A program made the translations under genes and the position numbers. Shown in pieces: positions 999 through 47,024 of a stretch of 64,000 nt of DNA. The DNA comes from a virus (taxonomy: Duplodnaviria; Caudoviricetes). The DNA lies in the IMG/VR virus record IMGVR_UViG_3300038499_000016, positions 1 to 64,000 of that record; one strand, 5' to 3'. Within the stretch, counting starts at the first letter, position 1, and each line of letters opens with the position of its first letter. The notes under the pieces are model-generated. The model did no database searches, was not told the DNA's origin, and was given only the letters and a program-made list of their open reading frames with translations.

Positions 999-3900
999 TT
1001 ATTTGAGTCCGAAATATACGGCAGTAAAATTTCGAGATAGTCCTGATTTGTTTTCTATGTAGTAATAACCTCCAGATACTCCGACATTTACATGAGCAGC
1101 AGTTCCTATTGCAGAACTAAAATATGTTGACACACCCATTTGTAACGTTGATGCGGTGCCATTAAAATTCCAACGTGCTGTACTTACTCCTGTCCAATTT
1201 AAAACAATAATTTCAATATAACCAACCAAAGCTGCTGTCGATAAACCTAAACCAGCAAAAATATTGTACGTTGCATCATTCCCTAACGTAAAATCAAACA
1301 TTCTCATTGTAGTGGAAGGCCCTGTAACAGATAAAGGGGCACTCCCAGAACTTACTACATCTAATGTTGCCGTAGGACTCGTACCTATACCAACAGCTCC
1401 TGTCGTTAATAGTACCATTTGAGAAGTTGATCCGGCTGCTCCTATATAACAAGTATGAGCGCTATAGGTGCCCATCCACCCTGTGCTGGACAAACTATTA
1501 GACATCATTCCAGTACGCACACCAGCAGCATCAACTATAGAATATGGAGCTCCTGAAGCTTCATAAACATGCATTTTAAACGACGGGCTAGTCCCAATAC
1601 CCACATTACCAGCAGAATCTATGCGCATCCGTTCAGTATTATTTGTCCCAAAATAAATAGGCTGTGCAGCTAAAGAATTTAAAGTCACTCCTCCAGATTG
1701 AGTATTCCAAATATACGTTCCATTACCATGTATCATTCCGCTTGATGGAAAGCCCGATCCAAACACTGATATTCCTCCAGTACCAAAACTTGCATCATTA
1801 CCCAACCTTAACGAAGATGCTGCCAGCGTACCAGCATTTGGATTGTATACTAAAATGGCACAATCACCATTAACATTTTCGTGGACATGAAATTTATATA
1901 CGGGACTGGCCGTCCCTATACCAACCTTACCTGTAGAATCTATCGTCATGCAAACAGCATTACTAGTTCCTAAATGTAAACTTCGAGGTTTATCATTAAA
2001 TATCACACTAGAATAAGCAGTGGATCCAGGGAGAATTGATGCGCCAATACTGCTTTCTTGCCCTATAAACAAATCGTTACCAGTATCGTTTATAAACACA
2101 GCATAACAGGCATTTGTAGCCGTCGTGGACTCAACCCGTACAATACCCGTAGTATTACGAATATCTAATGCAGCCCCAGGACTCGTAGTCCCGATACCAA
2201 CAAGACCCGCGGAATCTATTGTCATCTGGACCGAGCCACTGGTGGCCAATTGCATAGAATGGGCATCCTGCACGCCAATAATACCTGCGTACGCAGCCCC
2301 ATTCAAAAAATCTCCCCCAGTGCTTCTTTCACGTCCTACATACATCTGCCCAGCAGTATTATTGAATTGAATGTAAGTTGAATTTGTACCTGTAGAAGAT
2401 TCAACAAGTATAACGCCCCCAGGTGCACAAACATGCAAAGGAGTACTAGGCATCGTACCGATGCCCACAAGACCCGCGGAATCTATTGTCATCCGGATAG
2501 CACCATTGGTACCAAAATGCATGTTATATCCAGAAGCAACACTAATTACTCCAGAATATGCGCTCGTACCAGTAAGAATTTGACTCCCTACACTTGCTTC
2601 ATGGCCAACATAAAACGATCCACCAGAATTTACATAAGAAGCAAAACAAGAGTTCGTGCCCGTCGTAGATTCAGCACGAATAACACAAAGAGCACCACGA
2701 ACATCCAATGTATTTCCAGGACTGTTAGTTCCTATACCCACAAGACCCGCAGCAGAAATACGCATTCTCTCTGTGGTATTTGTACCAAATACAAGTGGAA
2801 TATTTGATTGTACTGACAAATAGCCATACCCTGCAGTCTCAATTCCTACGTCTACCGTTCCACTTGGATCTTGAAATCGAGCATACATAGAAGCAGCACT
2901 GGCAGTATACAGATGTATTGGTGATGCAGGATTCGTAGTCCCAATACCAACAAGACCCCCTGAGCCTATCGTCATATGAACAATATTGTTCGCACCCAAT
3001 CCAAGAGGAGCATTAGCCTCATTAATTAGATATCCCTGATTGGTGTTCGCCTGCTGAAGATAAACACCCAGCCCCGCTGATCCATCATCCCTCACCCGAA
3101 CAACAGGCTGATCACCATACGCATCTAATGTAGTCCCAGGATTCGTAGTTCCAATACCTACATAACCTGTAGAAGCGACCCTCACAGCCTCCGTCATGAC
3201 ACTACCACTGGTCGTGGTCTGTAAAGATAACGCAGACTGATGAGTAGTGTGATTCTGATTGATACACACAATCTGTGCGTTTACAGAAGAACTATCGGCA
3301 AACGTAACATCTTCAGTATTGTTCGTGGTTCCATTGGTGTTCTGAATAAGAATACGCGGTGAATGCCCCGCCGTCAGACCTGTATTAGCATCACCACTTC
3401 TCAGCCGAGCAGCATCAGCCGTAACCATCACAACATCTAACCCAGCAGTAGGATTCGTAGTCCCAATACCTATCCTGTCCGTTATCGTCCCCGGATACAT
3501 ATTCGGAGCAGTCCGGATCCAATAAGAAGACCCACCAACCGCCCCATCCACATACGACTTCACAGCATTCTGCGTAGACAAAATGTTATCAGAAGTACCC
3601 AAGGCCGTCGACGTCGATATCTCATTCACCCAACTACCCGTGTACAACCGCAACGACCCCTCCACATCCAACGTCGTCAACGGCTGCGTCGTACCTATAC
3701 CCACACTGCCCGTCGCATCAACCACCACCCGCTGAACCCCACCCGTCGCCAACTGTAACTGCGTAGCCTCGTAATTCCATATTTCCAAATTGTTCGCAGC
3801 ATCCAACCGCAATACCGCCCCATCCCCTGACCCTATCCCTGTCCCAGCATTCACAATCTGTATACCAGGAACATTACTCCCCGTAGAATTCACAACAAGC

Positions 3901-4247
3901 GTAGGACCCGTACCACTGTTATTCAACCCCACCACATAATCCGTACCAGCATCCGTCTTGTTCACAATAAACGCCGGCTGAGGATCACTCTGCTCAATCA
4001 TCAACTGATCGTAAACAACCATCTCAGCACTCAAAGCGTGGATTACAGCCGTACCATCCACCCTAAACCCACCACTCACCGTAGCATCCCCACCTATGTA
4101 CGCGCCTAGCCCTATAGATGCCGTCCCATCTACTACCATCGACCCCGTATTGTGAAGACCCGCGACTACATACGACGAATCCGACGGATCCAACTTCGTG
4201 TGATCTATCGCATTGTTCTCTACCCATTTCCGTGATACCTGAGACAT
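999..4247 (-). CDS. tail fibre/spike protein with GIGT repeats
   Basis: 1082 aa, Gly/Ser/Thr-rich; 10 repeats of the ..RMxIDxxGxVGIGTxxP..LxV type; GGAG RBS; no S74 chaperone domain seen. Confidence 0.85.
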   Translation of the reverse strand: MSQVSRKWVENNAIDHTKLDPSDSSYVVAGLHNTGSMVVDGTASIGLGAYIGGDATVSGGFRVDGTAVIHALSAEMVVYDQLMIEQSDPQPAFIVNKTDAGTDYVVGLNNSGTGPTLVVNSTGSNVPGIQIVNAGTGIGSGDGAVLRLDAANNLEIWNYEATQLQLATGGVQRVVVDATGSVGIGTTQPLTTLDVEGSLRLYTGSWVNEISTSTALGTSDNILSTQNAVKSYVDGAVGGSSYWIRTAPNMYPGTITDRIGIGTTNPTAGLDVVMVTADAARLRSGDANTGLTAGHSPRILIQNTNGTTNNTEDVTFADSSSVNAQIVCINQNHTTHQSALSLQTTTSGSVMTEAVRVASTGYVGIGTTNPGTTLDAYGDQPVVRVRDDGSAGLGVYLQQANTNQGYLINEANAPLGLGANNIVHMTIGSGGLVGIGTTNPASPIHLYTASAASMYARFQDPSGTVDVGIETAGYGYLSVQSNIPLVFGTNTTERMRISAAGLVGIGTNSPGNTLDVRGALCVIRAESTTGTNSCFASYVNSGGSFYVGHEASVGSQILTGTSAYSGVISVASGYNMHFGTNGAIRMTIDSAGLVGIGTMPSTPLHVCAPGGVILVESSTGTNSTYIQFNNTAGQMYVGRERSTGGDFLNGAAYAGIIGVQDAHSMQLATSGSVQMTIDSAGLVGIGTTSPGAALDIRNTTGIVRVESTTATNACYAVFINDTGNDLFIGQESSIGASILPGSTAYSSVIFNDKPRSLHLGTSNAVCMTIDSTGKVGIGTASPVYKFHVHENVNGDCAILVYNPNAGTLAASSLRLGNDASFGTGGISVFGSGFPSSGMIHGNGTYIWNTQSGGVTLNSLAAQPIYFGTNNTERMRIDSAGNVGIGTSPSFKMHVYEASGAPYSIVDAAGVRTGMMSNSLSSTGWMGTYSAHTCYIGAAGSTSQMVLLTTGAVGIGTSPTATLDVVSSGSAPLSVTGPSTTMRMFDFTLGNDATYNIFAGLGLSTAALVGYIEIIVLNWTGVSTARWNFNGTASTLQMGVSTYFSSAIGTAAHVNVGVSGGYYYIENKSGLSRNFTAVYFGLK
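2200..2493. repeat. 27 nt exact direct repeat between adjacent tail-fibre modules
   Basis: acaagacccgcggaatctattgtcatc at 2200-2226 and 2467-2493. Confidence 0.8.
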
Positions 4248-4259: not shown

Positions 4260-4505
4260 TTATGAACGGTCGTAAATAATCCTGATCTTGGAACTGGCAT
4301 CAAGCATCGAATACAATCCGTATGACCCACTATCCCACTTCACATTAGTCCCATCCACGTAAAAATCCCCAGTCAATGCCTGCGAAGTACCACCAATAAT
4401 GTCCATGGCCACATTACTACTGACCAATGGCGTACCCGATAACGCAACATACCGGTTAGAACTGTCCGTGGTCGACAAAACTATGTAGTCTACCTGAAAA
4501 GCCAT
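4260..4505 (-). CDS. small putative virion structural protein
   Basis: ATG 4505 with AAGGAG RBS; Ser/Thr/Gly-rich beta-type sequence; first gene of the tail fibre operon. Confidence 0.7.
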   Translation of the reverse strand: MAFQVDYIVLSTTDSSNRYVALSGTPLVSSNVAMDIIGGTSQALTGDFYVDGTNVKWDSGSYGLYSMLDASSKIRIIYDRS

Positions 4506-4560
4506 AATCACAAGCTCCTTGGAAATACATTTTCCCCGGAAGTATCAGTACCTACGCTAT

Positions 4561-14190: not shown

Positions 14191-14806
14191 TCGGGGCCGT
14201 CCTTTCAATAGGATATCCGTAATTCAACCATCCGGACACAGGCACACCTTTCACGGGTGACTTGCCCATACCGAACTTTAAAGCCACCACATCGTACCCT
14301 AGTAACTTCAGGATAACAAGCAACTGACTGGAAGTGTGTCCCACATAACAGTAAATCAGTATCTTCTTGTCTTTTGGTAATTGTGCGATATTCTCAGACT
14401 TCAGAATGTCCAGCCAGAAGATATTTTTGGCCCCAGGAATATGTCCTGCGTCATAGTCCTCTTTCCTACGGATGTCCAGGATGAAGAATTCCGTAGATAC
14501 GGACTTGATCTTATCGTAGAGCTCTGTGGGGGTGATGTAATTCCAATCCTTGTCGACGATGTCCAGATATTTCTGGAATACCGACAGCAGATTCTGGTCG
14601 AGTCCTTTTAGGATATCATCCCCTATCATGCGTCGGACAATCTTACGGGACAGCCTATTACTTATGACTTTCTTGATATCAGGATCTGTGTGTCTGACTA
14701 TCTCGGCGGACAGCCTGTTGTTGAGGATGTCTACCTGTTCCGCCGCGACAGGATCCGTCTTCTCAAGAGCTTCCGCGATTGCGTTGAGTTTATCCGTATG
14801 TTGCAT
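14162..14806 (-). CDS. rhodanese-domain protein with N-terminal extension
   Basis: ILDIR..EDYDAGHIPGA and active loop CYVGHTS. Confidence 0.85.
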   Translation of the reverse strand: MQHTDKLNAIAEALEKTDPVAAEQVDILNNRLSAEIVRHTDPDIKKVISNRLSRKIVRRMIGDDILKGLDQNLLSVFQKYLDIVDKDWNYITPTELYDKIKSVSTEFFILDIRRKEDYDAGHIPGAKNIFWLDILKSENIAQLPKDKKILIYCYVGHTSSQLLVILKLLGYDVVALKFGMGKSPVKGVPVSGWLNYGYPIERTAPNDSYSRPSS

Positions 14807-15332
14807 CGGACCCGATCCCCCATGAAGTGACTCTGAATGGTGATATTATTTCATGTGCAAGAGTAGCGGATTCTTTTTGATACCTCCAGCGTATTTCATA
14901 GGCCCCCGGATCATCAGGAGCACATATATTGGCATAGAACTGTCCGACAGCAGGATTCGCGGCCGTACGTAACGTAAACCCTACTGGAGAAGCCGTTCCA
15001 TCCGGTCGTTGAAGATACCATATGCTATAGTTCAACCATACGGGATTATAGGTCCGTGTCAGATAAGTACCATCCGAATAGGTACCATCAGTAAGTGTCC
15101 CACCCATGTAGGTACTATCCCAGAAGGTTACTGATAGGCTATCTGTAAGGCTTCCCTGAATGAACGTGGCATCTTGGGGGATGTAGGTACTATCGGCTAA
15201 CAGGATGCCTGAGAACGAGGCCTGATGGGGATAATCAATAACGTGGAAGGACCCTGTTCTTAGATCGCCTCCGACCAGATGGGCTTGTTGTGGGGCATCA
15301 ACGACATTCAGAGTACCTGTAATCAGGGCCAT
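14790..15332 (-). CDS. putative virion structural protein, 7 D-[GAS]-T motifs
   Basis: 180 aa, Thr/Ser/Gly-rich; C-terminal half (GQFYA..PGAYEIRW) resembles the N-terminal domain of 9724-10572 (GKYYA..GDWRIRW). Confidence 0.7.
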   Translation of the reverse strand: MALITGTLNVVDAPQQAHLVGGDLRTGSFHVIDYPHQASFSGILLADSTYIPQDATFIQGSLTDSLSVTFWDSTYMGGTLTDGTYSDGTYLTRTYNPVWLNYSIWYLQRPDGTASPVGFTLRTAANPAVGQFYANICAPDDPGAYEIRWRYQKESATLAHEIISPFRVTSWGIGSDATYG

Positions 15333-15334
15333 TG

Positions 15335-15733
15335 TTAGGGCACCACATAGTAGCCTGATGAAATGGACACGGTCGTATCGTTAGCCGTCACACTCAAGGA
15401 GCTCAGCTCCATATCTCCGCCTACACCAGGAAGGGTGACGCTTCCTCCCCAAACAAAAGTAGCATCCCTATTCAAGAACCCGAAGGATGCAATGGTACCA
15501 TCGACGAACGCTGTAGAGTCGTAGATGACTTTACCGTAGGTAACGCCGATATAGGCGGTACCATCTGCTGCGTCCGTGAATGCCGGATTAGAAAGCCTCT
15601 GCAGACTCAGGGTAGTTCCATCGGATGTATAGGTCGCAAGTCGGCCGTATGGTGTAGCACTACCGAGATCGATACGATCGACCATTAGGTTGCAATCGGC
15701 ATTTCGTGTTGCGGTGGATTTTATCAGGGCCAT
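15335..15733 (-). CDS. putative virion/tail structural protein, 5 D-[GAS]-T motifs
   Basis: MAL..STATRNA....L.NPAF..A.DG...GSV...GGDMELSS pattern typical of small phage tail proteins. Confidence 0.75.
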   Translation of the reverse strand: MALIKSTATRNADCNLMVDRIDLGSATPYGRLATYTSDGTTLSLQRLSNPAFTDAADGTAYIGVTYGKVIYDSTAFVDGTIASFGFLNRDATFVWGGSVTLPGVGGDMELSSLSVTANDTTVSISSGYYVVP

Positions 15734-15736
15734 GTA

Positions 15737-16171
15737 TTACTCCGGCATGGGTTCTGTATCCAGCACCAGTTCAAGTTCAATGACCATGGACTTGTCTTTG
15801 GGGTCTATTCTGGGCATGTAATCGAGTTGGTCGGTCCATATCACCGAGTCTTCTCCGATTTCGCTATGGTCACTGGCTGGGTATTTTTCCTGGAAATGTT
15901 TATGCAGTTCATCGACCATGACTGCATTAAGTTTCTCTTCGTGATCTTCCACCCAATCTCCAATGAGCAGATTGAGGGCTTTATAGCTTTCGGGTTCCAC
16001 GCCTTCAAAATAGACTTTCACGCCGGCCCATATCTCGACTTGATCGGGGATTGGGCTATCGGGGGATATTTCTTCGTGGGACAGGTCATCGAATTCCACG
16101 AACTCGAAGTTGTCCTTTATCGTAAAGGTCTGTTTTGCGTGGAACTGACGAACAAAATCAATGGTTTTCAT
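15737..16171 (-). CDS. acidic hypothetical protein
   Basis: start reassigned to ATG 16171 because the upstream part is occupied by a separate 51 aa ORF. Confidence 0.7.
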   Translation of the reverse strand: MKTIDFVRQFHAKQTFTIKDNFEFVEFDDLSHEEISPDSPIPDQVEIWAGVKVYFEGVEPESYKALNLLIGDWVEDHEEKLNAVMVDELHKHFQEKYPASDHSEIGEDSVIWTDQLDYMPRIDPKDKSMVIELELVLDTEPMPE

Positions 16172-16173
16172 TT

Positions 16174-16329
16174 TCAGGTGTCCCATGAACTTGATGAGTA
16201 GTCTGCGGTCACTCCGATAGGCATGAGTGTTGTGGCATCCAATATCCATCCATAGCGGACGAAATACTGACCACCTGTCGGGGATATGACGTCTTTCATA
16301 CCGAGGTATGTGTTACTGGTCGCGTCCAT
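16174..16329 (-). CDS. 51 aa small protein not in the ORF track (MDATSNTYLG...SSWDT)
   Basis: GGAG RBS; fills the gap between neighbours with 2 nt spacing to the next ATG; two DAT motifs. Confidence 0.7.
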   Translation of the reverse strand: MDATSNTYLGMKDVISPTGGQYFVRYGWILDATTLMPIGVTADYSSSSWDT

Positions 16330-16342
16330 TTAAAAACTCCAT

Positions 16343-16636
16343 TCACTTGATAGGTCCATTCATCAAATTATGGCAAAGACTTTTCAGGGACTTGATGGTA
16401 TCCGCATATGTCAGCGAATCTACTTTTGCTTCCCTTGAGAAGTACTTCACCTTGAGTTCTTGCATCAGTGTGTTCTTTTCAAATATAAAATACACCCTAC
16501 GGGTCTTGGAATCCCGTATGGACTTTACCATCTTACAGCCTGTGGAAAGAAAAAATGCCGCTAAATATAAGTCACAGGTCTGATATCCGGATTCCCCGTC
16601 ATAAAGATCACTGGTAACGATGCCTTCTGCTTCCAT
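16343..16636 (-). CDS. DUF5659-like phage protein
   Basis: YQTCDLYLAAFF..G...RVYFIF pattern. Confidence 0.6.
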   Translation of the reverse strand: MEAEGIVTSDLYDGESGYQTCDLYLAAFFLSTGCKMVKSIRDSKTRRVYFIFEKNTLMQELKVKYFSREAKVDSLTYADTIKSLKSLCHNLMNGPIK

Positions 16637-16686
16637 GCTATCCCTTTCTATCGGTATTTGTATCTAAAGACTAAGTGACTACTATT

Positions 16687-16699
16687 ATTAGAAGATTAT
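16687..16699 (-). promoter_or_regulatory. phage promoter-like motif ATAATCTTCTAAT
   Basis: motif copy just after a terminator and upstream of the 16636 start. Confidence 0.7.
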
Positions 16700-16703
16700 C
16701 GTC

Positions 16704-16741
16704 AAAAAATAAAAGGCCGCCCCCTGGTGAGGAGACGGCCT
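16704..16741 (-). terminator. rho-independent terminator
   Basis: minus strand aggccgtctcct-cacc-agggggcggcct followed by tttattttt. Confidence 0.85.
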
Positions 16742-16773
16742 ACAAGGGCTCTTATTCAAGCCTTGCAAAAGAC

Positions 16774-17052
16774 TTAAGAGTCTACAGTATTGGAGACGGT
16801 GAAGGATCCGAGGTTCTCATAGTTCTTGATGACCCCGTACATCCTGCTCATCATCACATCACTGGTGCTGAGGAAGGTACAATCCGTACCATGAGCAAGA
16901 TACCTGTCCTGCCCACGAGTAGTTCCATCAGCGTGGTACAGGTTGTAGATACTTCTGCCGCCACCAAGACCTGTCCTCTGACCAACATCACGAAGATACA
17001 CCGTTCCACGGTTTGTACCGTCGTATTTCACAATCGTGGTCCCGTATGCCAT
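16774..17052 (-). CDS. small, probably abundant virion protein
   Basis: AAGGAGG RBS, own promoter motif and own terminator; two DGT motifs. Confidence 0.75.
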   Translation of the reverse strand: MAYGTTIVKYDGTNRGTVYLRDVGQRTGLGGGRSIYNLYHADGTTRGQDRYLAHGTDCTFLSTSDVMMSRMYGVIKNYENLGSFTVSNTVDS

Positions 17053-17110
17053 AAATCCTCCTTATTGATGGGTGTTCTTAAATGGCACTTTTGATACCAC
17101 TTTTACCCTT

Positions 17111-17123
17111 ATTAGGAGATTAT
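17111..17123 (-). promoter_or_regulatory. phage promoter-like motif ATAATCTCCTAAT
   Basis: motif copy upstream of the 17052 start. Confidence 0.7.
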
Positions 17124-17154
17124 TAAGGTTTCGATCACCAGGTATTCCAGGGTA

Positions 17155-17802
17155 CTAAACTGTTGAGTCCGTAATAGCTACTCTGGTAACAGTACTCCCG
17201 GAATAGGTATAGGACACCAACTTTGCGGGGGATCCGGCCGTAGTTTTGTCACTCAGATACGTCTTTGTTGTAGCCAAGTTTGTACCATCGTACGTATACT
17301 CAGTTACGGTATTGGGCAAATAATAATCAGAAACTGCAGTTATAAGACCACCATTCGAAGAAGCGGCCGCCTTCACCCATCGATAATTTCCATCACTAAA
17401 TCCCCACATATGTCTGTTGATGGTAGGGTCATCCTTCATATACCGCGTAGTAATCCCTACTGGCGGTATCTCTACTACCGTTGATTTAGCACTTTCCGCC
17501 CCTGCGAAGTCCAGGTAGGTGATTGCCCAATACAGCAGCACATTTGAAAAGTCCACTGTAACTGGAAGACTGAGAGTGGATCTGATCAATGTGATGGGTA
17601 CATCTACGGTTACTTTTCCGCGTTCCCCAGGTAACTGACTAGCTTGGGAAGAAACCGTGCTTATGAGTGTTGTGAGGGATGCTGCGGCAGGTACGAGACC
17701 TACATATAGCCGATAGCTTGCAGCGACACGACCTGGCTCGGGATTCCATCCGAGCTTCAAGTTATCATTTGCCTTATAAAGGGCTTCAACAAAGGTAATC
17801 AT
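17155..17802 (-). CDS. putative virion structural protein (FN3-like N-terminus)
   Basis: ATG 17802 in ATGA overlap; LGWNP..AASYRLY; Thr/Ser-rich C-terminus ending DSTV. Confidence 0.65.
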   Translation of the reverse strand: MITFVEALYKANDNLKLGWNPEPGRVAASYRLYVGLVPAAASLTTLISTVSSQASQLPGERGKVTVDVPITLIRSTLSLPVTVDFSNVLLYWAITYLDFAGAESAKSTVVEIPPVGITTRYMKDDPTINRHMWGFSDGNYRWVKAAASSNGGLITAVSDYYLPNTVTEYTYDGTNLATTKTYLSDKTTAGSPAKLVSYTYSGSTVTRVAITDSTV

Positions 17803-21630: not shown

Positions 21631-21912
21631 ATGTCCAAAAGATATCAGAAAAAACGCCTTATTTGTTTGTCTGATAGGCAGGAAGCAGTTTTATCTGACC
21701 TATCCGAAGAGCTCGGCATTTCCATGTCGGAGCTCATAAGACGCGGGCTGGATACCTACGTAGAGGGACTCATAAAAGACGGGACTCTTGTCCGTTTTAC
21801 CTTTTCTACAGCGGATAAATCCATTGATCTGGTGTGTTCCAAGGACAAATTTAAGCAATTGTACGAGTATGTGAAACAACATCCCGAGACAATACAGGTC
21901 GCCCAAAAATGA
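21631..21912 (+). CDS. ribbon-helix-helix (CopG-like) DNA-binding protein
   Basis: RLICLSDRQEAVLSDLSEELGISMSELIRRGL. Confidence 0.75.
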   Translation: MSKRYQKKRLICLSDRQEAVLSDLSEELGISMSELIRRGLDTYVEGLIKDGTLVRFTFSTADKSIDLVCSKDKFKQLYEYVKQHPETIQVAQK

Positions 21913-22580
21913 AGCTTTCAGTAATTACGCCCACATGCCGTGGTGTCAAAAACCTGACCCAGCTTTTACGGGACTTCAAAAATCAGACCTTCAAAGACTT
22001 CGAACACATCATAGTGCACGACGGAAAAGTCCCACCTGATGTCCAGGCCTTCATGAAAGACCATGAGAACGACTATGACATCAAGTTCGTGTCTATCCCT
22101 AAAGACATGGGCAATACCAGTATCGCCCCGGGTACTAAGCCAAGAAACCACGGATTATCTCTGGCCCGCGGTGAATATGTAGTATTCTGCGATGACGACG
22201 ATAGGTATAAAGATGTGTACGCCGAAATTCTTGTCACGGGTTGTCGGGACAACATCATCAATGTCGTCCAGATGTCTGCTTCAGAGCACCGTATCAATGG
22301 TGGCAACCCCAGACATATCAAACTCATCCCAGAGGTAGGATTACCGACCTTCCCTATGATCTGTCACGTAGGAACACCCTGCTTCATCGTGAAGCGAGAA
22401 TGGGCCCTTATCGAGCCTTGGCGTGAAGAGCCTGAACACGACTTTCATTTCATCAAACGTATCTGTGACCGATTCAATCTCCTCATAAGAATCGTACCAG
22501 GCATGCTTGTCGACGTGGATGGAGAAGTCACCGTCGGAATGAAAGACTGGGTGTCAATTCCTCCTTTCTATCGGGACTAA
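21909..22580 (+). CDS. glycosyltransferase family 2
   Basis: SVITPT, IIVHDG, RNHGL, FCDDDD. Confidence 0.9.
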   Translation: MKLSVITPTCRGVKNLTQLLRDFKNQTFKDFEHIIVHDGKVPPDVQAFMKDHENDYDIKFVSIPKDMGNTSIAPGTKPRNHGLSLARGEYVVFCDDDDRYKDVYAEILVTGCRDNIINVVQMSASEHRINGGNPRHIKLIPEVGLPTFPMICHVGTPCFIVKREWALIEPWREEPEHDFHFIKRICDRFNLLIRIVPGMLVDVDGEVTVGMKDWVSIPPFYRD

Positions 22581-22583: not shown

Positions 22584-23804
22584 ATGGCGGATCAAGAAAA
22601 ACCCCCAAAAGGGGAAGTCGATAATTGCAGACATCGCCTATTGAAGTATTGCAGGGGTCAAGGACTCGACCTGGGTATGGGCGTGACCAAGATCAAGCCC
22701 GATGCCATTGGCATCGACCTGTATAGCCCCTATGCTGATATGCACGAGGATGCCAGAATCCTGAAAAACTATCCCGATGACTATTTCGATTTCGTGTTCT
22801 CAAGTCATCTTCTCGAAGAGCTTCAAAATACCGAAGCCACTCTCAGAGAATGGATCCGAGTCCTGAAACCGGGCGGCAATCTAGTCCTCTATCAGGCCGA
22901 CAAAGACGTTTATTATCCTCTTGGCCATCCTCAGTGTAATAAAAGACACATTCACCATTTCGGATGGGAAGACCTATGGAGTATTTTCCAGTCGATCGGA
23001 GGCATGAGTCTCGTTCATCACGACAAGTTTAACCTGCATCCCTATAACGAATGGTCTTTTGAACTGGTAGTACGAAAAGGCACCTTATCAGAACCGGAGA
23101 TACCTATGGAAGGCATATCCCTACTCATTCCAACCCTGAACAGACCTAAGAATCTAGAAGATTTCACAATGTCCGTTGAACAAACGGCCAAAGTGCACGA
23201 TCAGATAGAGATCCTCTATGGAATACATGCGGACGATATCGTCAGTAAGACCAAGATTGAAGAACTCAAGGGAAGAGTAAAGATAAGTGTCCGGGCAGAA
23301 ATCATTGACCGACATCCTGATGGAGTACACCTATCCTTCCTTTGGAATCAGATCTATCCCCGAGCTAAATTTCCCATACTCGGATACTTTGGTGATGATG
23401 TTATTTTTCGTACCCCAGGATGGGATGAAGAAGTCCGAAAAGAGTTCGCGGCGGACAAACGACTTCTAGTCTGCTGCAATGACTGTTATCAGCACGGATC
23501 CCAAGCAACCTTGTACTTCACACACAAAATTGTACACGATGCCTTTGGATTCTATTTACCCATGAAGTTCAGACGATGGTTCATGGATACCTTCCTTGAT
23601 CGAGTATTCCGACATTCAGGTAAATTTCGATATCGAGAAGATATTGTCACTGAACACATGCATCCTGAGCGCTTCCCGGAACGTACCGATGATGTCTACC
23701 GAGCCATGAATCATCACAAACAGGCAGATCAGGCTCTTTGGGAATCACCAGAAAACATCAAAGACATTGAGAAATACATCCAAATCTTAAAGGCCATCCC
23801 GTGA
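22584..23804 (+). CDS. SAM methyltransferase + GT2-like fusion
   Basis: GLDLGMG...FSSHLLE..WIRVLKPGG, then SLLIPT..GDDVIFRT..WD. Confidence 0.85.
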   Translation: MADQEKPPKGEVDNCRHRLLKYCRGQGLDLGMGVTKIKPDAIGIDLYSPYADMHEDARILKNYPDDYFDFVFSSHLLEELQNTEATLREWIRVLKPGGNLVLYQADKDVYYPLGHPQCNKRHIHHFGWEDLWSIFQSIGGMSLVHHDKFNLHPYNEWSFELVVRKGTLSEPEIPMEGISLLIPTLNRPKNLEDFTMSVEQTAKVHDQIEILYGIHADDIVSKTKIEELKGRVKISVRAEIIDRHPDGVHLSFLWNQIYPRAKFPILGYFGDDVIFRTPGWDEEVRKEFAADKRLLVCCNDCYQHGSQATLYFTHKIVHDAFGFYLPMKFRRWFMDTFLDRVFRHSGKFRYREDIVTEHMHPERFPERTDDVYRAMNHHKQADQALWESPENIKDIEKYIQILKAIP

Positions 23805-25582
23805 AAAACCTCTGTACCCTTTCTGACTGGAATTATCTGCCAAAAGGCTTGGCCCTGTATAAGTCTTTGGTCAGTACTTCCACAGAGTCCTTCAAGCTCT
23901 ATTATCTATGCTTGGACGAGACTTCCTATAAAAAACTCATAAGACTACGTCTACCAAATATCCTACCCATCAGTCTTCAAACCATTGAACGACAGAATGA
24001 AGAACTCGGAACGGCCCGAGCAAACCGTCCCTATAACGAATACTGCTGGACTCTTGCCTCGTACTTTTGTGATTGGCTATTAAGCAAAGAAGATCTGGAA
24101 CATGTCTGCTACATTGATTCAGACATACTGTTCTACGCTGACATAGACATCCTCTACAAGGAGATAGGACCCAAAGACGTAGGTATCGTAGCCCACCGCC
24201 ACAATGCCGTAGGTGACCGGGATGGAGCCTACAACGTGGGTGTCATCTACTTCAGAGGCAGCAAAATAGGCCGTGAGTGTCTGTACTGGTGGAAAGATGC
24301 GGTACTGCTTAAAAAACATCCTGAGTACTATGGATGTGGAGATCAGAAGTACCTTGAAGGATTCATACCGAGATATGGGATAGATAACATCTGTGTCATG
24401 GACGAGACCTTTGGTCACGGAGCCCCTTGGAACTATAGACTCTATGACTGGAGCACCTACGATCAAGATCATTGCATAACCTGGAATGGTAAGAAGCAAT
24501 CTCTTGTATTCAATCACTTCTCAAGAATGTCCTATGACCTTTCCACCAATACCGTCAACTTCACATCAGGGCAGTATGCAGATCATACATTGAACTTCAC
24601 GGTCTTCAACATACCTCAAGTTCAGAAACTGTATCAAAACTACTACCTGGAGCTCAAGACCATCCATGAGACTTGGATGGTCAACGGCAAGCACATCAAG
24701 CCACTCAAGATTGCCGTAGGCATGATAGTCTTTGAAGGTGAATACATCCTCAAGCAATGCCTTGAATGCATTTACCCCTATGCATCCCAGATACTAATTG
24801 CCGAAGGTCCTGTCCGTTTCTGGCAACAAGAAGGTCGTACAACATCAACCGATGGGACCAATGATATTCTTCATTCATTCCCGGATCCCGATAACAAAAT
24901 CACTATTACTCACGGACAGTACACGGAGAAGGATGACCAGTGCCGGGCCTACATGCGTTTTCTTAGACAGGATATGGACTACATATGGAACGTTGATTCT
25001 GACGAATTATTCAGAGCAGAAGACATTGAAAAAATCATTCAACTCCTGACTGATTACCAGTATACCTCAGTAGGGCTCAAGAGCTGCAGCTTCTATGGGG
25101 GGTTCGAGAGACACATAGGCGGCTTTGAAGAGGCCTGCGATCAATTCCTACGCATCTTCAAGGTCTATCCAGGGTCCACTTGGAAGACCCATCGTCCTCC
25201 AACCATCATACATCCTGATGACGTAAAGACCTTGCCCAACAACCATCTTGATAGCGATACCCTTTGGGAAAAACATGGGGTCAGGATGATGCACTATTCC
25301 TATCTCTTCCCAAAACAGGTCAAGAACAAGATTCATTACTACAAAAATGCTCTACAGGGCAGCAAATGTATTGATAACTACTATGAGCAGGTTTATTTAC
25401 CTTGGGTATTAGGGGACTCCGGAACCCGATATGCCATAGAACAGCGATTTCAGGGCGTTCATGAATATAAACCAGAGTTCAGGACTCCTACATTTACCAA
25501 AGAGTTTGTAGGTCACCATCCAGAGTCTATTCAAAGGGATCTTGAGAAACTACAAGTCTATTTCAACGAGCAACTCAAATGA
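23801..25582 (+). CDS. tandem GT-A domain glycosyltransferase
   Basis: YIDSD..YNVG..GDQKYL domain plus a second domain with VDSDE. Confidence 0.8.
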   Translation: MKNLCTLSDWNYLPKGLALYKSLVSTSTESFKLYYLCLDETSYKKLIRLRLPNILPISLQTIERQNEELGTARANRPYNEYCWTLASYFCDWLLSKEDLEHVCYIDSDILFYADIDILYKEIGPKDVGIVAHRHNAVGDRDGAYNVGVIYFRGSKIGRECLYWWKDAVLLKKHPEYYGCGDQKYLEGFIPRYGIDNICVMDETFGHGAPWNYRLYDWSTYDQDHCITWNGKKQSLVFNHFSRMSYDLSTNTVNFTSGQYADHTLNFTVFNIPQVQKLYQNYYLELKTIHETWMVNGKHIKPLKIAVGMIVFEGEYILKQCLECIYPYASQILIAEGPVRFWQQEGRTTSTDGTNDILHSFPDPDNKITITHGQYTEKDDQCRAYMRFLRQDMDYIWNVDSDELFRAEDIEKIIQLLTDYQYTSVGLKSCSFYGGFERHIGGFEEACDQFLRIFKVYPGSTWKTHRPPTIIHPDDVKTLPNNHLDSDTLWEKHGVRMMHYSYLFPKQVKNKIHYYKNALQGSKCIDNYYEQVYLPWVLGDSGTRYAIEQRFQGVHEYKPEFRTPTFTKEFVGHHPESIQRDLEKLQVYFNEQLK

Positions 25583-26544
25583 TCCAATTGTTCAACATAC
25601 CCAACTACACAATCGATACGTCAGAGTTTAATAATCTCTTACACGATAAGGTCGTTAAGGAATTCGAACAGCGTTTCTGTGAGTATGTTGGAGCCAAATA
25701 CGGATGCTCGATCAACAGTGCCACCAATGCCATATTCCTAAGTCTGAAACTGGAACAGGCAAGCATCATTTCCATACCCAGCATTATCCCTCCCGTCGTC
25801 ATCAATGCTGCTCACCATGCTGGATGTTTCGTTAAACTGACCGATAACGTCGAATGGGTAGGCTACAGTTACATTCTGTATGAAGATCAGAACGAAAGAA
25901 TTATCGATTCTGCACAACGGGTAGACCGCAATCAATACATTCAAGATGCGAATGACGATGACTTGATGATTTTCAGTTTCTATCCTACCAAGCCTGTTGG
26001 CAGCTGTGATGGAGGGATGGTCGTATCAAATAATGGGGATATGATCAACTGGATAAGGAAAGCCACGATAAACGGCACAAGTTGTTCCGAGAACAGCTGG
26101 AATCGATCCCCTCTATTCCCTGGATGGAAGATGTATATGAACTCCATTCAGGCATGGATAGCCCTTAGGAATCTAGAGAAGCTTGATGCCAAGAAGATTA
26201 GACTCAAAGAAATTCGTGATGCCTATAACGACGCTTTAGGATACAAAAACATAAGTGATCATCTCTATCGGATACAGACTAAAAACAACGAAAAATTCAT
26301 AGAAGAAATGAAGAACAGAGGCATCACATGTGGCCGGCATTATGAAGCCACTCATAGAATGCCTGTGTACAACCCGGATAACAGATTCTATTGTCCGCAG
26401 GCGGATTTCACATCTCAAACGACCGTATCAATACCTTTTCACGAAGCTCTGACAGACGAAGATGTTCAGACCGTCATAAAGAACGTGAGGGACCTCCATG
26501 AGCCATGCAGATTCTTGGAAAAATGGACAGCATGTCTTCGATAA
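25579..26544 (+). CDS. DegT/DnrJ family sugar aminotransferase
   Basis: NSATNA, IDSAQ, SFYPTK, DGGM. Confidence 0.9.
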   Translation: MIQLFNIPNYTIDTSEFNNLLHDKVVKEFEQRFCEYVGAKYGCSINSATNAIFLSLKLEQASIISIPSIIPPVVINAAHHAGCFVKLTDNVEWVGYSYILYEDQNERIIDSAQRVDRNQYIQDANDDDLMIFSFYPTKPVGSCDGGMVVSNNGDMINWIRKATINGTSCSENSWNRSPLFPGWKMYMNSIQAWIALRNLEKLDAKKIRLKEIRDAYNDALGYKNISDHLYRIQTKNNEKFIEEMKNRGITCGRHYEATHRMPVYNPDNRFYCPQADFTSQTTVSIPFHEALTDEDVQTVIKNVRDLHEPCRFLEKWTACLR

Positions 26545-27100
26545 GCAGCTTGATCTCAATCTTGAATATTTCAAAACCAATGAGTATCCTTCCCACTGGA
26601 AGACCTTCATCGAACTCATGTCTGCTGCCTGTCGACTAATGCCCAATATCAAAAAGATGCTCGATATAGGATGTGGGTGTGGAGCCTACTTTGAGCTCTG
26701 TCGAAGGGTATTCCCTACCATAGAGTACTCCGGATATGACTACTCTTCACGTGCCATCGCACTGGCAAAGAACTATTGGGGATGTGAGAGATTTTATGAA
26801 AAGGACTTCTGGAAACTACAACAGGCAGATATAGAGGGCTTTGATATTATTAACATCGATGCGTTGTTCGCAATCATGAACAATGCAGATGAAGCCATTG
26901 CCTATTTGATGTCCCTAAAGCCTAAGGTGATCATCTTAAACCGCATAGACGTGCATAGTGGCGATAGCAATTACGACGTCTACAAGGCCTACGATGAAAT
27001 ATACACCTACCAATTTTGGCATAACCAAAACAAATTCTTTGCAATGCTCAAAGGATACAATGTCCGCCAAGCAGGAAAAACATATCTCATATGGCTGTGA
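26498..27100 (+). CDS. class I SAM methyltransferase
   Basis: LDIGCGCG. Confidence 0.85.
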   Translation: MSHADSWKNGQHVFDKQLDLNLEYFKTNEYPSHWKTFIELMSAACRLMPNIKKMLDIGCGCGAYFELCRRVFPTIEYSGYDYSSRAIALAKNYWGCERFYEKDFWKLQQADIEGFDIINIDALFAIMNNADEAIAYLMSLKPKVIILNRIDVHSGDSNYDVYKAYDEIYTYQFWHNQNKFFAMLKGYNVRQAGKTYLIWL

Positions 27101-27675
27101 ATGGACATACTTTTAACGAGTCGGCTATCACGTCCGACAGCATAGTTCTCGACATAGGCGGGAACCACGGTGACTTCTCCCGAGAAGTCCTGGAAAGGTT
27201 CAAGTGCTATGTAGAGTGCTTTGAACCGGATCAAGATGGCTGTAGCCATATCCGTCAGATGATCAACGACCCCAAGTTCACACTGATAAATAAAGCTGTC
27301 GCTGGCATCTCTGGTAGACGATCCTTCTACCGAGTAGGACCAATCAATGGCGGGAACAGCCTACTTCCCGGATCCCGGGAATATGGTAAAGACCCCGGGA
27401 ACACAATCTTTGACGTAGACGTTGTAAGCTTAGATTCCATCCTGGATAAATATCAAACGGTAGACCTGATAAAGATGGATTGTGAGGGAGCGGAGATAGA
27501 AATCATAGAAAAGACTCAGCAGTGGTCAAAAGTCAAACAGATCACCATAGAGTTTCATGACTTCTGTTTCAAAAGCATAACGCTTAAAGACGTCGAGCGA
27601 TGTGAAGATATCCTCAAATCCTATGGATTCAATTCCCAATATCAGAAGCACGAAGACCATCTATTCTACAGGTGA
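27091..27675 (+). CDS. FkbM family methyltransferase
   Basis: DIGGNHG, FEP, KMDCEGAE, EFH. Confidence 0.9.
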   Translation: MAVNGHTFNESAITSDSIVLDIGGNHGDFSREVLERFKCYVECFEPDQDGCSHIRQMINDPKFTLINKAVAGISGRRSFYRVGPINGGNSLLPGSREYGKDPGNTIFDVDVVSLDSILDKYQTVDLIKMDCEGAEIEIIEKTQQWSKVKQITIEFHDFCFKSITLKDVERCEDILKSYGFNSQYQKHEDHLFYR

Positions 27676-28316
27676 TCATGTTTAAAAAAGATCTTGATTT
27701 GGTTATGTCCTTACACGGCAAATACAGCTTCAAGTCTCCACTATTGGATGCTGGAGGACTCAATAATCCCACCATTGCCGATTATGAAATTTCGGCAAAA
27801 AAGGCCGTCGAGATTACAGTCACCGATAGTGAAGGAACCAGAGTCATAAAGGTTCCTCATAGCAACCAATCGGACAGATATCTGAAAATAAGCCGGCCTT
27901 GGTCCTTTATTGATCACAACTATACTACCCTTAATCCTCAGGATGGAGACCCCTATATAGAAGATCTCCCTGAAAAATATCCGGAAGCATTTTCCACCAT
28001 CATTATGGTATCTGTTTTTGAACACGTGAATAATCCGTATGAAGTATCGGATGCCATATTCAAAATTCTAAAGCCTGGCGGATACTTCTTCAACTCTACC
28101 CCATTTCTATTTCCCTATCATCCTTCTCCCGAAGATAACTTCCGTTTCTCTCCATTGGCCTTAAGAAGGATCCACGAAAAAAGCGGATTTCACTGGCTGG
28201 AAGGAGACTTCCACATAAATCATTCAACAAAAGAAGGTATCGGAGACACTAATCCTGCCAATTACGGAGCACCTCAGGCTATAATGGCCTCCTACGCGCT
28301 ATGTAAAAAAGATTGA
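27672..28316 (+). CDS. SAM methyltransferase-like protein
   Basis: SVFEHV..LKPGG..TPFLFPYHPSPEDNFRF. Confidence 0.8.
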   Translation: MIMFKKDLDLVMSLHGKYSFKSPLLDAGGLNNPTIADYEISAKKAVEITVTDSEGTRVIKVPHSNQSDRYLKISRPWSFIDHNYTTLNPQDGDPYIEDLPEKYPEAFSTIIMVSVFEHVNNPYEVSDAIFKILKPGGYFFNSTPFLFPYHPSPEDNFRFSPLALRRIHEKSGFHWLEGDFHINHSTKEGIGDTNPANYGAPQAIMASYALCKKD

Positions 28317-28323
28317 GGAAAAA

Positions 28324-30916: not shown

Positions 30917-31299
30917 ATATCTACAATCTGAAGACCTTTGATGACGAACGTGGAAGGCTGAGCCCCCTGGAGTTCAAGGATCTACCTTTTATACCGAAAC
31001 GAGTATTCTTCGTTACGCAGGTTCCTGAAGGCACCGCCCGAGGCGGGCACGCCCACTACAACACTCAGCAGTTTCTAATATGCCTCAGCGGAAAGATTAC
31101 CGTGGTTCTGCACAATGGCCGGTGGTCAGAAGAACAAGTCATTTATCCCAACCAAGCTGTGTTCGTAGATAAGATGATATGGGACTATCAGATTTTTGAA
31201 ACTGGGCAGGATCACTTAGCAGTACTCTGTTCCACGGAATACGATCAAGCGGATTACATCATGGATTTCAAATATTTCCAACAACTGAACGTTGAGTAA
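30913..31299 (+). CDS. FdtA/QdtA-like sugar 3,4-ketoisomerase (cupin)
   Basis: DERGRL..PF.PKRVF...RGGHAH...YDxxDYI. Confidence 0.9.
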   Translation: MNIYNLKTFDDERGRLSPLEFKDLPFIPKRVFFVTQVPEGTARGGHAHYNTQQFLICLSGKITVVLHNGRWSEEQVIYPNQAVFVDKMIWDYQIFETGQDHLAVLCSTEYDQADYIMDFKYFQQLNVE

Positions 31300-32137: not shown

Positions 32138-32152
32138 AACCGCCGCTGCTCC

Positions 32153-42517: not shown

Positions 42518-42526
42518 AGAATCACC

Positions 42527-43486: not shown

Positions 43487-43566
43487 AATCACCTCTTTCA
43501 TACTTTAAGAAAAGAAAAATTGGATGTGACGTCTGCTGACCACAGGTCTCCAAGCTACCAACTACA

Positions 43567-45380: not shown

Positions 45381-45396
45381 ATTATGTTACAGCTCT

Positions 45397-46300: not shown

Positions 46301-46325
46301 ATTCCTTCTCCTAATTATTTCAAAC

Positions 46326-47009: not shown

Positions 47010-47024
47010 GGCATCTCCTATACA

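Follow-up and report, generated by a model that had tools for sequence, protein, structure and literature searches.

Why do the small structural-type proteins encoded between positions 14,790 and 17,802 of this phage DNA repeat the tripeptide D-[GAS]-T so often, and is the repetition tied to the sugar-modifying genes of the same genome? The initial annotation of the window (64,000 nucleotides, the first part of a 108.7-kb phage fragment, here G000) had read the tripeptide as a candidate glycosylation sequon that saturates the virion proteins and, through enzymes of a glycan island, gives a virion glycan coat.

Excess and specificity of the motif

The counts behind that proposal proved exact on recount, including the 18 copies in the 670 residues of p180, p132, p51, p92 and p215 together; the expectation, roughly put at one to two copies, computes to 1.6, and the CCA enzyme and the SWIM protein contain none, as stated. 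ORF 9724-10572 has two. Against 20,000 composition-preserving shuffles per protein the excess is strong in p180 (180 aa; 14790..15332, minus strand), where 7 of the 13 Asp residues belong to the motif and the shuffles average 0.39 copies without once reaching 7, and in p132 (132 aa; 15335..15733, minus strand), whose six D-x-T sites comprise five D-[GAS]-T and one DTT (shuffle mean 0.44, P=5e-5). It is marginal (P 0.01-0.05) in p51, p92 and p215, which have two copies each. Both p51 (16174..16329) and p92 (16774..17052), small conserved genes on the minus strand, are real genes, as they are also called in the syntenic relative L061; the L061 homologue of p51 has no copy, and the two of p92 are unconserved, one D-G-T being N-G-T in L061.

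Over the whole 108.7-kb record 73 copies stand against 28.8 expected, and in an unbiased scan with collagen-like ORFs removed DGT ranks first among ~7,900 tripeptides (31 vs 9.3, z=7.1); its rank is 1158 in T4 and 210 in Vibrio phage K354. Structural ORFs contain 57 copies (13.9 expected) in G000 and 138 (43.2 expected) in the complete 470-kb relative G001, and DGT alone, the strongest member of the motif, occurs 29 times in those of G000 (4.8 expected). In the outer neck, tail and fibre proteins of the clade to which these phages belong, D-[GAS]-T is present at 3-6 times chance.

Only the combination of Asp with Thr is in excess. In G000 and G001 taken together the ratio of observed to expected copies is 2.19 for D-[GAS]-T, 1.03 for N-[GAS]-T, 0.87 for E-[GAS]-T, 1.17 for D-[GAS]-S and 1.10 for D-[GAS]-V, so that Ser does not stand in for Thr, nor Asn or Glu for Asp. 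For [ST]-[GA]-S the structural ORFs show no enrichment in G000 (1.05x) and a mild one in G001 (1.63x). Since codon use within the motif is unbiased, selection acts at the level of the protein.

Such selection need not involve a modification. D-x-T might be purely structural, an Asx-turn or beta-hairpin cap in which the Asp side chain bonds the i+2 amide and the Thr hydroxyl and to which nothing is attached; we regard this as a real possibility, if on balance a doubtful one. The clade would then use it heavily in its beta-rich tail proteins, as in Asp-box-like D-G-T-W hairpins, and the choice of Asp over Asn would reflect chemistry, such as a need to keep long-lived particles free of Asn-Gly deamidation. 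In keeping with this, N-G is low in the structural ORFs of G000 (0.70), the structural proteins of T4 prefer Asn in the first position (N-[GAS]-T at 1.7x), Trp is enriched 2.5x directly after the motif, and PKD-type GDGT is found among the copies. Then again, a cap would not readily explain why neither Ser nor Asn or Glu substitutes, and (D+N)-x-T, at ~2.6x in the structural ORFs of G000 as compared to ~1.2x in T4, is too abundant for a simple Asn-to-Asp swap.

Distribution among virion proteins and phages

The claim that the virion proteins are saturated was too sweeping. No D-[GAS]-T occurs in the major capsid protein (77476-78351 of the record), in the portal (102627-104504) or in five further ORFs of the head-gene region, and a 1017-aa scaffold/protease-like ORF of that region has two; the excess is confined to neck, tail-accessory and fibre proteins, and capsid, portal and enzymes are at zero or chance level. 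A virion glycan coat is likewise too broad a term, because the motif-free capsid would stay uncovered. The lack of the motif from capsid and portal counts against a role as glycan acceptor, as does the finding that it is not depleted in phage enzymes (ratios ~1.1-1.2). Among the carriers is the 1082-aa tail-fibre protein (999..4247, minus strand; PHROG 18345 and 9942, tail fibre), with 6 copies as compared to 1.65 expected (shuffle P=0.006), and fibre-type ORFs of relatives contain 11-21. The adjoining p83 (4260..4511, minus strand) has one copy and its relatives 2-3, its G001 counterpart (347696-347941) having three where 0.16 are expected.

The excess is common to G001 and ~13 metagenomic relatives, and only a single clade of phages of ~450 kb shows it: no excess was seen in T4 (observed/expected 0.92), Vibrio phage K354 (1.29), 41 unrelated viral contigs (1.25) or the three related huge phages G002, G003 and G004. 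These last three possess several GT2 genes, which also speaks against an acceptor role. In fibre-type ORFs the ratio is graded by relatedness (3.2, 1.75, 1.4, 0.8), in line with a purely structural motif. However, the excess spans unrelated folds within the same genomes, namely the alpha/beta p132, p180 with its meander and Ig-like domain, p215, a PKD-like protein, three small paralogues and several fibres, yet is restricted to a single clade. This distribution over many unrelated folds points to a reader that acts in trans.

The arguments for such a reader hold equally for a factor other than a glycosyltransferase. D-x-T might be phosphorylated by an acidophilic Ser/Thr kinase, methylated by a methyltransferase of the island, recognised by an assembly chaperone as a docking tag, or bind metal. 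The complete G001 encodes a Hanks-type kinase domain (154953-155459), and the island has over ten methyltransferase domains as well as two radical-SAM enzymes. That kinase gene is distant from the structural block, however, none was seen in the 108.7 kb of G000, and it is a GT2 and a methyltransferase gene that are tied to the block, both physically and phyletically; to our knowledge, moreover, D-x-T alone is no known metal site. We consider a reader of this other kind quite unlikely.

Conservation and structural context of the sites

Within the motif Asp is more conserved than other Asp residues (0.80 vs 0.53) and Thr more than other Thr residues (0.76 vs 0.30; P=8e-6), while the middle position does not depart from the protein average (0.47). 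Fixed Asp and Thr around a free residue resemble the grammar of a sequon.

The clearest history is that of p132, a small outer virion protein assigned to PHROG 3758 ('virion structural protein'). Its AlphaFold2 model (pLDDT 90.7) best matches 9rkv_A of the phage 7-7-1 tail-fibre complex (PMC12796354; TM 0.73, E 7e-6), which, judging by chain size, is probably the garland protein gp014, followed by neck chains of Bas63 and Sf14. The fold is thus shared with garland or neck accessory proteins of myoviruses at an identity of merely 19%, and together with the PHROG assignment it suggests that p132 is an outer, multi-copy virion accessory protein. All six D-x-T sites are kept in 11 clade members and absent in 16 outgroup members of the family, which have S-G-T, G-G-T or D-T-S at these positions; homologues average 6.4 D-x-T in the clade and 1.0 in the outgroup (P=1e-5). 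D-[GAS]-T numbers 4-7 in the clade and 0-2 in distant homologues outside it, and the equal density in homologues that generic Asx-turn usage would entail was thus not seen. The six sites converged on the same tripeptide from differing ancestral states, which a structural cap does not readily explain, although the G-T part of two of them is ancestral to the whole family, as such a cap would allow.

In p180, whose family has 130 copies in 40 representatives (12.9 expected), a disordered N-terminus precedes a D-x-T-rich beta-meander and an Ig-like C-terminal domain with weak matches to the T5 and DT57C tail-tip proteins. Sites 72, 82 and 87 are kept in 18-22 of 24 homologues; D82-G83-T84 is invariant in a 13-sequence alignment, and 22 of the 24 homologues have D-x-T in that column. 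In the AlphaFold2 model (pLDDT 69) D82-G83 and D87-G88 form two-residue hairpin turns and Thr opens the next strand. Indeed, all modelled sites of p180 and p132 lie at turn-to-strand junctions, D-x in the turn and Thr opening the strand, a placement equally expected of a purely structural motif. The invariance of D82-G83-T84 agrees with such a motif; that several sites are tight D-G hairpins of invariant position, and that most sites of p132 and p215 are positionally fixed with no turnover, counts against an acceptor.

Copies also lie within disordered tails, and p180 ends in DATYG. The block protein p215 (17155..17802, minus strand) has three conserved D-x-T sites: among eight aligned orthologues Y-D-G-T is found in 7 and S-D-x-T (x being K, A, S or Q) in all, and the extreme C-terminus, T-D-S-T-V/I followed by the stop, retains TDST in 8 of 8. 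A hairpin cap is hard to reconcile with copies that lie in disordered tails or form an invariant terminus. We read D-x-T, its middle residue mostly Gly, Ser or Ala, as a short surface motif under selection, located in exposed turns and at chain ends.

The glycan island and a co-inherited glycosyltransferase

Domain searches (Pfam, NCBIfam) bear out the glycan island. A small soluble GT2 of 223 aa with a DDDD metal motif (21909..22580, plus strand; Pfam GT2, 8.9e-15) and a 406-aa SAM methyltransferase-domain protein (22584..23804, plus strand; Pfam) lie divergent from the D-x-T block. The rest of the island (23801..60991, no strand assigned) encodes GT2, GT4, GT9-like and GT47-like domains, many methyltransferases, three DegT aminotransferases, two epimerase/dehydratases, a UDP-sugar dehydrogenase, formyl- and acetyltransferases and the radical-SAM enzymes, and includes a MT-GT2-GT4 protein (54335-57196) and a GT2-TPR-MT protein (58982-60991). 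In G000 and the complete G001, searches for Bac_transf, WecA, Wzx and Wzy_C found no initiating phosphoglycosyltransferase, no Wzx flippase and no Wzy_C/PglL-type ligase. The lack of these lipid-carrier initiation, flippase and ligase genes fits a soluble acceptor.

Which of these enzymes could read the motif? The GT2-TPR-MT protein (669 aa; an N-terminal GT2, then TPR repeats and an extra methyltransferase domain), proposed in the initial annotation, is unlikely to, as it is a core gene of a far wider group of huge phages, with more than 1000 homologues at ~50% identity, and G002, G003 and G004 have orthologues without motif excess. What tracks with the motif is the small GT2: orthologues with 56-65% identity are found at the corresponding position in G001, L064, L067, L073 and L074, the co-inherited methyltransferase is syntenic in all five, G002-G004 have no match, and G001 holds the sole other true orthologue within IMG/VR. 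The divergent pair adjoins the block in 6 of 6 relatives with sequence that far and is missing in sister phages without the excess. The co-inheritance suggests that D-x-T may be a sugar-attachment signal; as it derives from one clade, it does not separate shared ancestry from function.

Alternatively, the island may act on something else and the motif be an incidental trait of fast-evolving paralogous tail proteins. The GT2-TPR-MT and MT-GT2-GT4 proteins would then glycosylate Thr of collagen-like (G-x-T / G-x-Q)n fibres, in the manner of BclA-type spore glycoproteins, or the host envelope or DNA. The GT2-TPR-MT carriers G000, G001, G003 and G004 do have collagen-like proteins with Thr in ~40-50% of Y positions, a possible target that weighs against D-x-T as acceptor, and the collagen-like glycoprotein BclA3 of C. 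difficile is glycosylated by SgtA (PMC7157674). The spread of GT2-TPR-MT far beyond the clade, a Mom-like DNA-modification domain (5188-8082) and three small paralogues (85530, 91448, 96794) with common motif positions point the same way. We consider this explanation unlikely, as it leaves the Asp/Thr specificity, the gains in p132 and the contrast in conservation unexplained, and it is compatible with a clade-specific GT2 that serves D-x-T beside core enzymes that serve collagen repeats.

Relation to known glycosylation systems

The N-X-S/T sequon of OST/PglB and of the cytoplasmic NGT/HMW1C adopts an Asx-turn, and D-x-T resembles it in its fixed i and i+2 positions, free middle and location in exposed turns. 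It differs in that Asp replaces Asn, N-x-T being unenriched here (1.03x), and in that the acceptor would be Thr (O-linked) or Asp. The general O-glycosylation motif of Bacteroidota, D-(S/T)-(A/I/L/V/M/T), likewise has Asp as recognition residue near a hydroxy-amino-acid acceptor, which directly follows it; that system is periplasmic and lipid-linked, whereas lipid-carrier genes are absent from G000 and G001. The two motifs had been called different, which is true of DGT, but DST and DTT fit both. We know of no precedent for Asp as glycan acceptor, of no short D-x-T sequon in mycobacteriophage glycosylation, and of no O-glycosylation system that uses D-x-T, the last of which counts against an acceptor role.

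The GT2-TPR-MT protein has the architecture of soluble protein- or peptide-directed glycosyltransferases such as GmaR, the Listeria flagellin O-GlcNAc transferase with a GT domain and TPR (PMC9638930), and the SunS-family peptide S-glycosyltransferases. Unlike these it has the additional methyltransferase domain, and its best NCBIfam match, SunS (TIGR04195; residues 6-245, 4e-13), scores 49 bits, far under the family cut-off of 350. Mycobacteriophages offer a further parallel, in that their virions are glycosylated by glycosyltransferases that the phage itself encodes (Freeman et al. 2023, Cell Host Microbe, as cited in PMC12619734). As far as that citing account goes, these enzymes are soluble and cytoplasmic and modify virion proteins including their C-termini, comparable to the TDSTV and DATYG tails of p215 and p180; their targets are the capsid and tail tube, whereas the capsid here is motif-free and the candidate targets are neck, accessory and fibre proteins.

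A tentative model

Taken together, what stands of the original interpretation is an enrichment that is protein-level, Asp/Thr-specific and not generic, beside a genuine island; the TPR-GT2 as its enzyme and the cover of the capsid do not. Tentatively, and knowing that it may well be wrong, we favour D-x-T as an acceptor signal, a candidate glycosylation sequon read by a soluble phage glycosyltransferase. We infer that an enzyme reads the motif, that it is a glycosyltransferase, the best candidate being the co-inherited 223-aa GT2 rather than the TPR-GT2, and that the modification falls on Thr. This enzyme would act in the cytoplasm, on virion proteins already folded or still folding, and join a sugar to the Thr hydroxyl, with the Asp two residues upstream as recognition element, and other enzymes of the island would extend and decorate the glycan.

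The phage and its motif-bearing gene block

The window corresponds to positions 1-64,000 of the viral record G000, which comprises 108,693 bp with an estimated completeness of 23% (CheckV), and the closest complete relative that we found, G001, has 469,617 bp with terminal repeats; the G000 phage is thus a piece of a ~450-kb megaphage. The two share 89% identity in the major capsid protein and 68% in the portal. Their outer proteins diverge fast, identity being 54% in p215, 41% in p132, 35% in p180 and 25% in the fibre.

On the minus strand of the window a conserved block encodes, in order, a 427-aa protein, a SWIM protein, a 116-aa protein, a Zn-ribbon protein, p215 (17155-17802), p92 (16774-17052), a DUF5659 protein, p51 (16174-16329), p170, p132 (15335-15733) and p180 (14790-15332). 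Beyond p180 lie variable inserts (a rhodanese protein and a CCA enzyme), an intein-bearing adaptor, a Mom-like protein, p83 (4260-4511) and the tail fibre (999-4247). The gene order of the block is common to G001 and to the metagenomic relatives L061, L064, L067, L068 (20.5 kb examined of a 441,848-bp metagenome contig) and L073. No blastn match to the block was found among GenBank phages, and a pattern scan of IMG/VR for p180 relatives likewise gave no match; G001 surfaced instead through a glycosyltransferase search.

Several neighbouring genes deserve mention in their own right. The rhodanese-domain protein (14162-14806), immediately downstream of p180, is conserved in G001, L073 and two further relatives (L074, L076) and is missing at that site in L061 and L068. 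The adaptor gene (8193-10572) is split and interrupted, with ORFs of 282 aa and 519 aa, and that of L061 (4839-7188) is likewise split, with faint Intein_splicing matches in both ORFs. The G001 adaptor (340410-341315) is a single 301-aa ORF with 74% and 79% identity to the two flanks and so looks like the uninterrupted form. Beside the adaptor, in G001, L061, L068 and L073 as well, is kept a gene for a 964-aa protein (5188-8082, plus strand) in which a Mom-like DNA-modification domain is joined to homing-endonuclease and HNH segments. G000 furthermore encodes an RNA-repair set, consisting of the CCA-adding enzyme (12236-13795) and of an RtcB ligase, a polynucleotide kinase and an RNA ligase with an HNH insert (67806-71113 of the record; PHROGs).

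Size and specificity of the D-[GAS]-T excess

The initial annotation had drawn attention to the tripeptide D-[GAS]-T in the small structural-type proteins of this block, and each of its counts proved exact on recount. Against the shuffled controls that it had proposed, here preserving composition, p180 carries 7 copies where 0.39 are expected and p132 carries 5 where 0.44 are expected (P=5e-5); the three proteins with two copies each (p51, p92 and p215) are marginal in such shuffles (P 0.01-0.05). All G000 ORFs together contain 73 copies as compared to 28.8 expected. When ~7,900 tripeptides were scored without bias after removal of collagen-like ORFs, DGT was the most over-represented (31 against 9.3, z=7.1); the same tripeptide holds rank 1158 in T4 and rank 210 in Vibrio phage K354.

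The motif codons are unbiased and follow overall usage, which places the signal at the protein level, and the 73 copies are spread over many different nonamers; a DNA-level cause is thereby excluded. A composition artefact is excluded by the per-protein shuffles together with analytic expectations, and collagen repeats as the source by the persistence of the excess after masking of G-x-y runs.

Could the tripeptide be purely structural, an Asx-turn that stabilises hairpins? Such a motif would be expected to tolerate exchange of Asn for Asp and of Ser for Thr, but the excess is not shared by the Asn, Glu or Ser versions: in G000 and G001 combined the ratio of observed to expected copies is 2.19 for D-[GAS]-T as opposed to 1.03 for N-[GAS]-T, 0.87 for E-[GAS]-T and 1.17 for D-[GAS]-S. 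The ratio for D-[GAS]-V is 1.10. [ST]-[GA]-S, another tripeptide with a small middle residue, shows no enrichment in G000 (1.05). The structural proteins of T4 favour N-[GAS]-T (1.7-fold) and disfavour the Asp form (0.7-fold), yet the combined Asx-x-T excess of the G000 structural ORFs is far above that of T4, which also speaks against a purely structural role.

Nor is the excess a generic trait of phage structural proteins. For D-[GAS]-T the ratio is 0.92 in T4, 1.29 in K354, a phage with a p132 homologue and without any family-2 glycosyltransferase (GT2), and 1.25 in 41 viral contigs carrying distant p132 homologues (~150,000 aa); in the related huge phages G002, G003 and G004 it is 1.33, 1.14 and 1.07, respectively. 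In the metagenomic relatives that carry p180 (33-50% identity, GC 0.36-0.54) the neighbouring proteins are enriched in every one, by 1.75-13-fold, and by 4-13-fold in all but L064. L061, for instance, has 28 copies as against 4.7 expected, and in L068 the homologues of p132 and p180 contain 6 and 5 copies, respectively, and a 971-aa fibre contains 15.

Restriction to tail, neck and fibre proteins

Structural ORFs carry 3.2-4.1 times the expected number of D-[GAS]-T copies, as compared to ~1.1-1.2 times in non-structural ORFs and 0.9-1.3 times in the controls, and the excess is restricted to structural ORFs of tail, neck and fibre type. All three forms contribute in G000 structural ORFs (DGT 29 versus 4.8 expected, DST 18 versus 5.1, DAT 10 versus 4.0). 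Along the G001 genome copies exceed expectation at 220-260 kb and 320-420 kb, and ~300 kb of other genes stay at the expected level. The earlier statement that the motif saturates the virion proteins is therefore too broad: not a single D-[GAS]-T occurs in the major capsid protein, in the portal or in five further ORFs of the head-gene region, and a 1017-aa scaffold/protease-like ORF contains two.

Motif-rich ORFs beyond the window comprise three small paralogues, a PKD-like protein, a 1112-aa protein and the non-collagen parts of collagen-like fibres. The paralogues (128-158 aa; G000 85530-86006, 91448-91840 and 96794-97180) lie among tail genes, have in common P-D-T-Y-F-D-S-T, a GRQ(T/Q)K stretch and D-G-T-W-x-K, and gave neither a PHROG match nor a blastp match in G001-G004. 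The PKD-like protein (92100-92747, 215 aa) has two 'G-D-G-T' segments followed by three near-exact tandem 19-aa units (GDVGDWNSGEIVPSLGVDI).

Conservation and structural context of the sites

By profile match (PHROG 3758, E 2.4e-6) and by a fold shared with virion components resolved by cryo-EM, p132 is a virion structural protein; it is 31% identical to a K354 'virion structural protein'. Foldseek matches its AF2 model (pLDDT 90.7) best to 9rkv_A (TM 0.73, E 7e-6), a chain of 139 aa from the tail-fibre complex of phage 7-7-1, and next to chains from the necks of Bas63 and Sf14. Since the fibres of 7-7-1 are decorated by small 'garland' proteins belonging to that complex (PMC12796354), p132 is predicted to be an outer, multi-copy accessory protein.

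Alignment of 27 p132 sequences reveals six D-x-T sites common to the 11 members from the clade, that is, the ~450-kb phages with the motif excess, at which the 16 outgroup members have S-G-T, G-G-T, D-T-S, S-G-D-V or G-D-T. The comparison of homologues suggested in the initial annotation thus shows that the density is not shared: homologues outside the clade have about one D-x-T each (mean 1.0, range 0-3) as opposed to 6.4 within it (range 4-8; P=1e-5), with similar Asp and higher Thr content in the outgroup. Convergence of six sites of one protein on D-x-T is not readily explained by hairpin stabilisation, and neither is the finding that unrelated folds of the same genomes carry the motif while their homologues elsewhere do not.

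The p180 family is motif-rich throughout (130 copies versus 12.9 expected in 40 representatives at <=50% identity), and proteins that have only its Ig-like C-terminal domain in common contain the motif at about the expected level (~1x). Besides the conserved sites p180 has ~25 sporadic ones, indicating some turnover. In p215, Y-D-G-T is present in 7 of 8 orthologues and S-D-x-T in all 8 (x being K, A, S or Q), and T-D-S-T-V/I is invariant at the extreme C-terminus of the eight. When the three families are pooled, motif Asp is more conserved than other Asp (0.80 versus 0.53, P=0.006) and motif Thr than other Thr (0.76 versus 0.30, P=8e-6), and the middle residue, which at conserved sites ranges over G, S, A, N, T, Q and K, is conserved at 0.47 as compared to a protein mean of 0.49. 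Fixed Asp and Thr around a free x is a grammar of the sequon type. The D-x-T residues have been retained in the outer proteins despite their evolving much faster than the capsid protein.

In the p132 model the D-x of all six sites lies within a turn or loop and the Thr opens a strand or stands just ahead of one. In the p180 model (pLDDT 69) a disordered N-terminal segment precedes a beta-meander, with D82-G83 and D87-G88 as two-residue hairpin turns; an Ig-like domain follows, and the C-terminal tail, which bears DATYG, is again disordered. The p180 PDB matches are weak and Ig-like, including tail-tip proteins of T5 and DT57C. At the level of secondary structure, DSSP on the AF2 models assigns D-x to turns, loops or disordered tails. 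Asx-turn geometry is found at all six p132 sites and at p180 sites 54, 82 and 87, where Asx is first in the turn and the i+2 residue starts a strand. A turn followed by Thr at a strand start fits an exposed acceptor site and a hairpin-stabilising Asx-turn equally well; the copies in disordered tails and at the invariant p215 C-terminus run counter to a purely structural role. On balance we regard such a role as a serious candidate, short of an even chance and only slightly less likely than a glycosylation acceptor.

Enzymes of the glycan island and candidate motif readers

The glycan island is borne out by searches against Pfam and NCBIfam. It encodes GT2, GT4, GT9-like and GT47-like domains, three DegT aminotransferases, two epimerase/dehydratases, a UDP-sugar dehydrogenase, formyl- and acetyltransferases, two radical-SAM enzymes and many methyltransferases. 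In neither G000 nor the complete G001 did we find an initiating enzyme of the Bac_transf/WecA type, a Wzx flippase or an enzyme of the Wzy_C/PglL type, which fits a soluble cytoplasmic acceptor.

The enzyme first proposed to read the motif, GT2-TPR-MT (58982-60991, 669 aa), shares its combination of glycosyltransferase and TPR with GmaR (PMC9638930), and its best NCBIfam match is SunS, but far under the cut-off; by such likeness it resembles a protein- or peptide-directed glycosyltransferase. More than 1000 proteins are homologous to it at ~50% identity, many of them encoded on contigs of 250-590 kb, and its gene belongs to the core set of a very large group of huge phages. Among these homologues, which include P0056, P0067, P0092 and P0096, several of ~1050-1075 aa carry Hint/intein Pfam domains; inteins are often seen in essential conserved genes. 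As a reader of D-x-T the enzyme fails the test of co-occurrence across genomes, its orthologues being present in G002, G003 and G004, which lack the excess.

The genes that do track with the motif are those of the 223-aa GT2 (21909-22580, plus strand) and the adjacent methyltransferase (22584-23804, plus strand), which are transcribed divergently from the motif block. Judged by its PF00535 match (55.5 bits, cut-off 23.3) and by an F-C/A-D-D-D-D-R stretch of the DxD metal-binding type that is invariant in five orthologues, the former is a predicted family-2 glycosyltransferase of GT-A fold. It is 56-65% identical in G001, L064, L067, L073 and L074, absent from G002-G004, and occurs in only one other IMG/VR record, that of G001. 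The gene adjoins the block in 6 of 6 informative relatives, but as all carriers belong to one clade the association with the motif is not phylogenetically independent.

The island might instead serve another target and be unrelated to the motif, a reading that overlaps with the others. Collagen-like tail fibres with alternating G-x-T and G-x-Q triplets are encoded at G000 98416-101697 and 108022-108621, and such fibres occur in all four examined carriers of a GT2-TPR-MT orthologue (G000, G001, G003, G004), with Thr in ~40-50% and Gln in 31-48% of Y positions. BclA3 of C. difficile, a collagen-like glycoprotein glycosylated by SgtA, provides a precedent (PMC7157674), and by analogy the fibres are a possible target of the conserved glycosyltransferases. 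That the motif stands apart from the island altogether nonetheless appears unlikely to us. Comparably improbable is that D-x-T is read by some other factor, although a single kinase domain in G001 leaves room for phosphorylation. The Bacteroidota D-(S/T)-x motif is no candidate, as DGT cannot fit it.

Taken together, these patterns suggest, tentatively and at somewhat short of an even chance, that D-x-T is a protein glycosylation acceptor motif. More tentative is the specific proposal of a genuine cytoplasmic O-glycosylation sequon, in which D-x-T on outer tail, neck and fibre proteins would be read in the cytoplasm by the small soluble GT2 and the O-linked sugar would then be extended by the ~39-kb glycan factory of the phage. 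Against a sequon count the positional fixation of most sites, the failure of phage enzymes to avoid the motif, the bare capsid, the confounding of the glycosyltransferase association by ancestry, and the alternative target offered by the collagen-like fibres.

The large glycosyltransferase sets of huge phages raise the question of what they modify, and a three-residue motif that singles out precisely the outer tail and fibre proteins, paired with a candidate enzyme, opens this question to direct test. If D-x-T is structural, it is an unusually clean lineage-specific turn motif spreading over unrelated folds. If it is a sequon, it would be the first acceptor motif, short and defined, for the glycosylation of bacteriophage particles by virus-encoded enzymes and a portable tag of minimal size for glycosylating proteins in the cytoplasm, and it would explain why Asp and Thr are retained in proteins that evolve as fast as these (35-54% identity between G000 and G001, where the capsid protein has 89%). 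The self-made glycans of megaphages would then serve to shield or tune the apparatus of host recognition and not the capsid.
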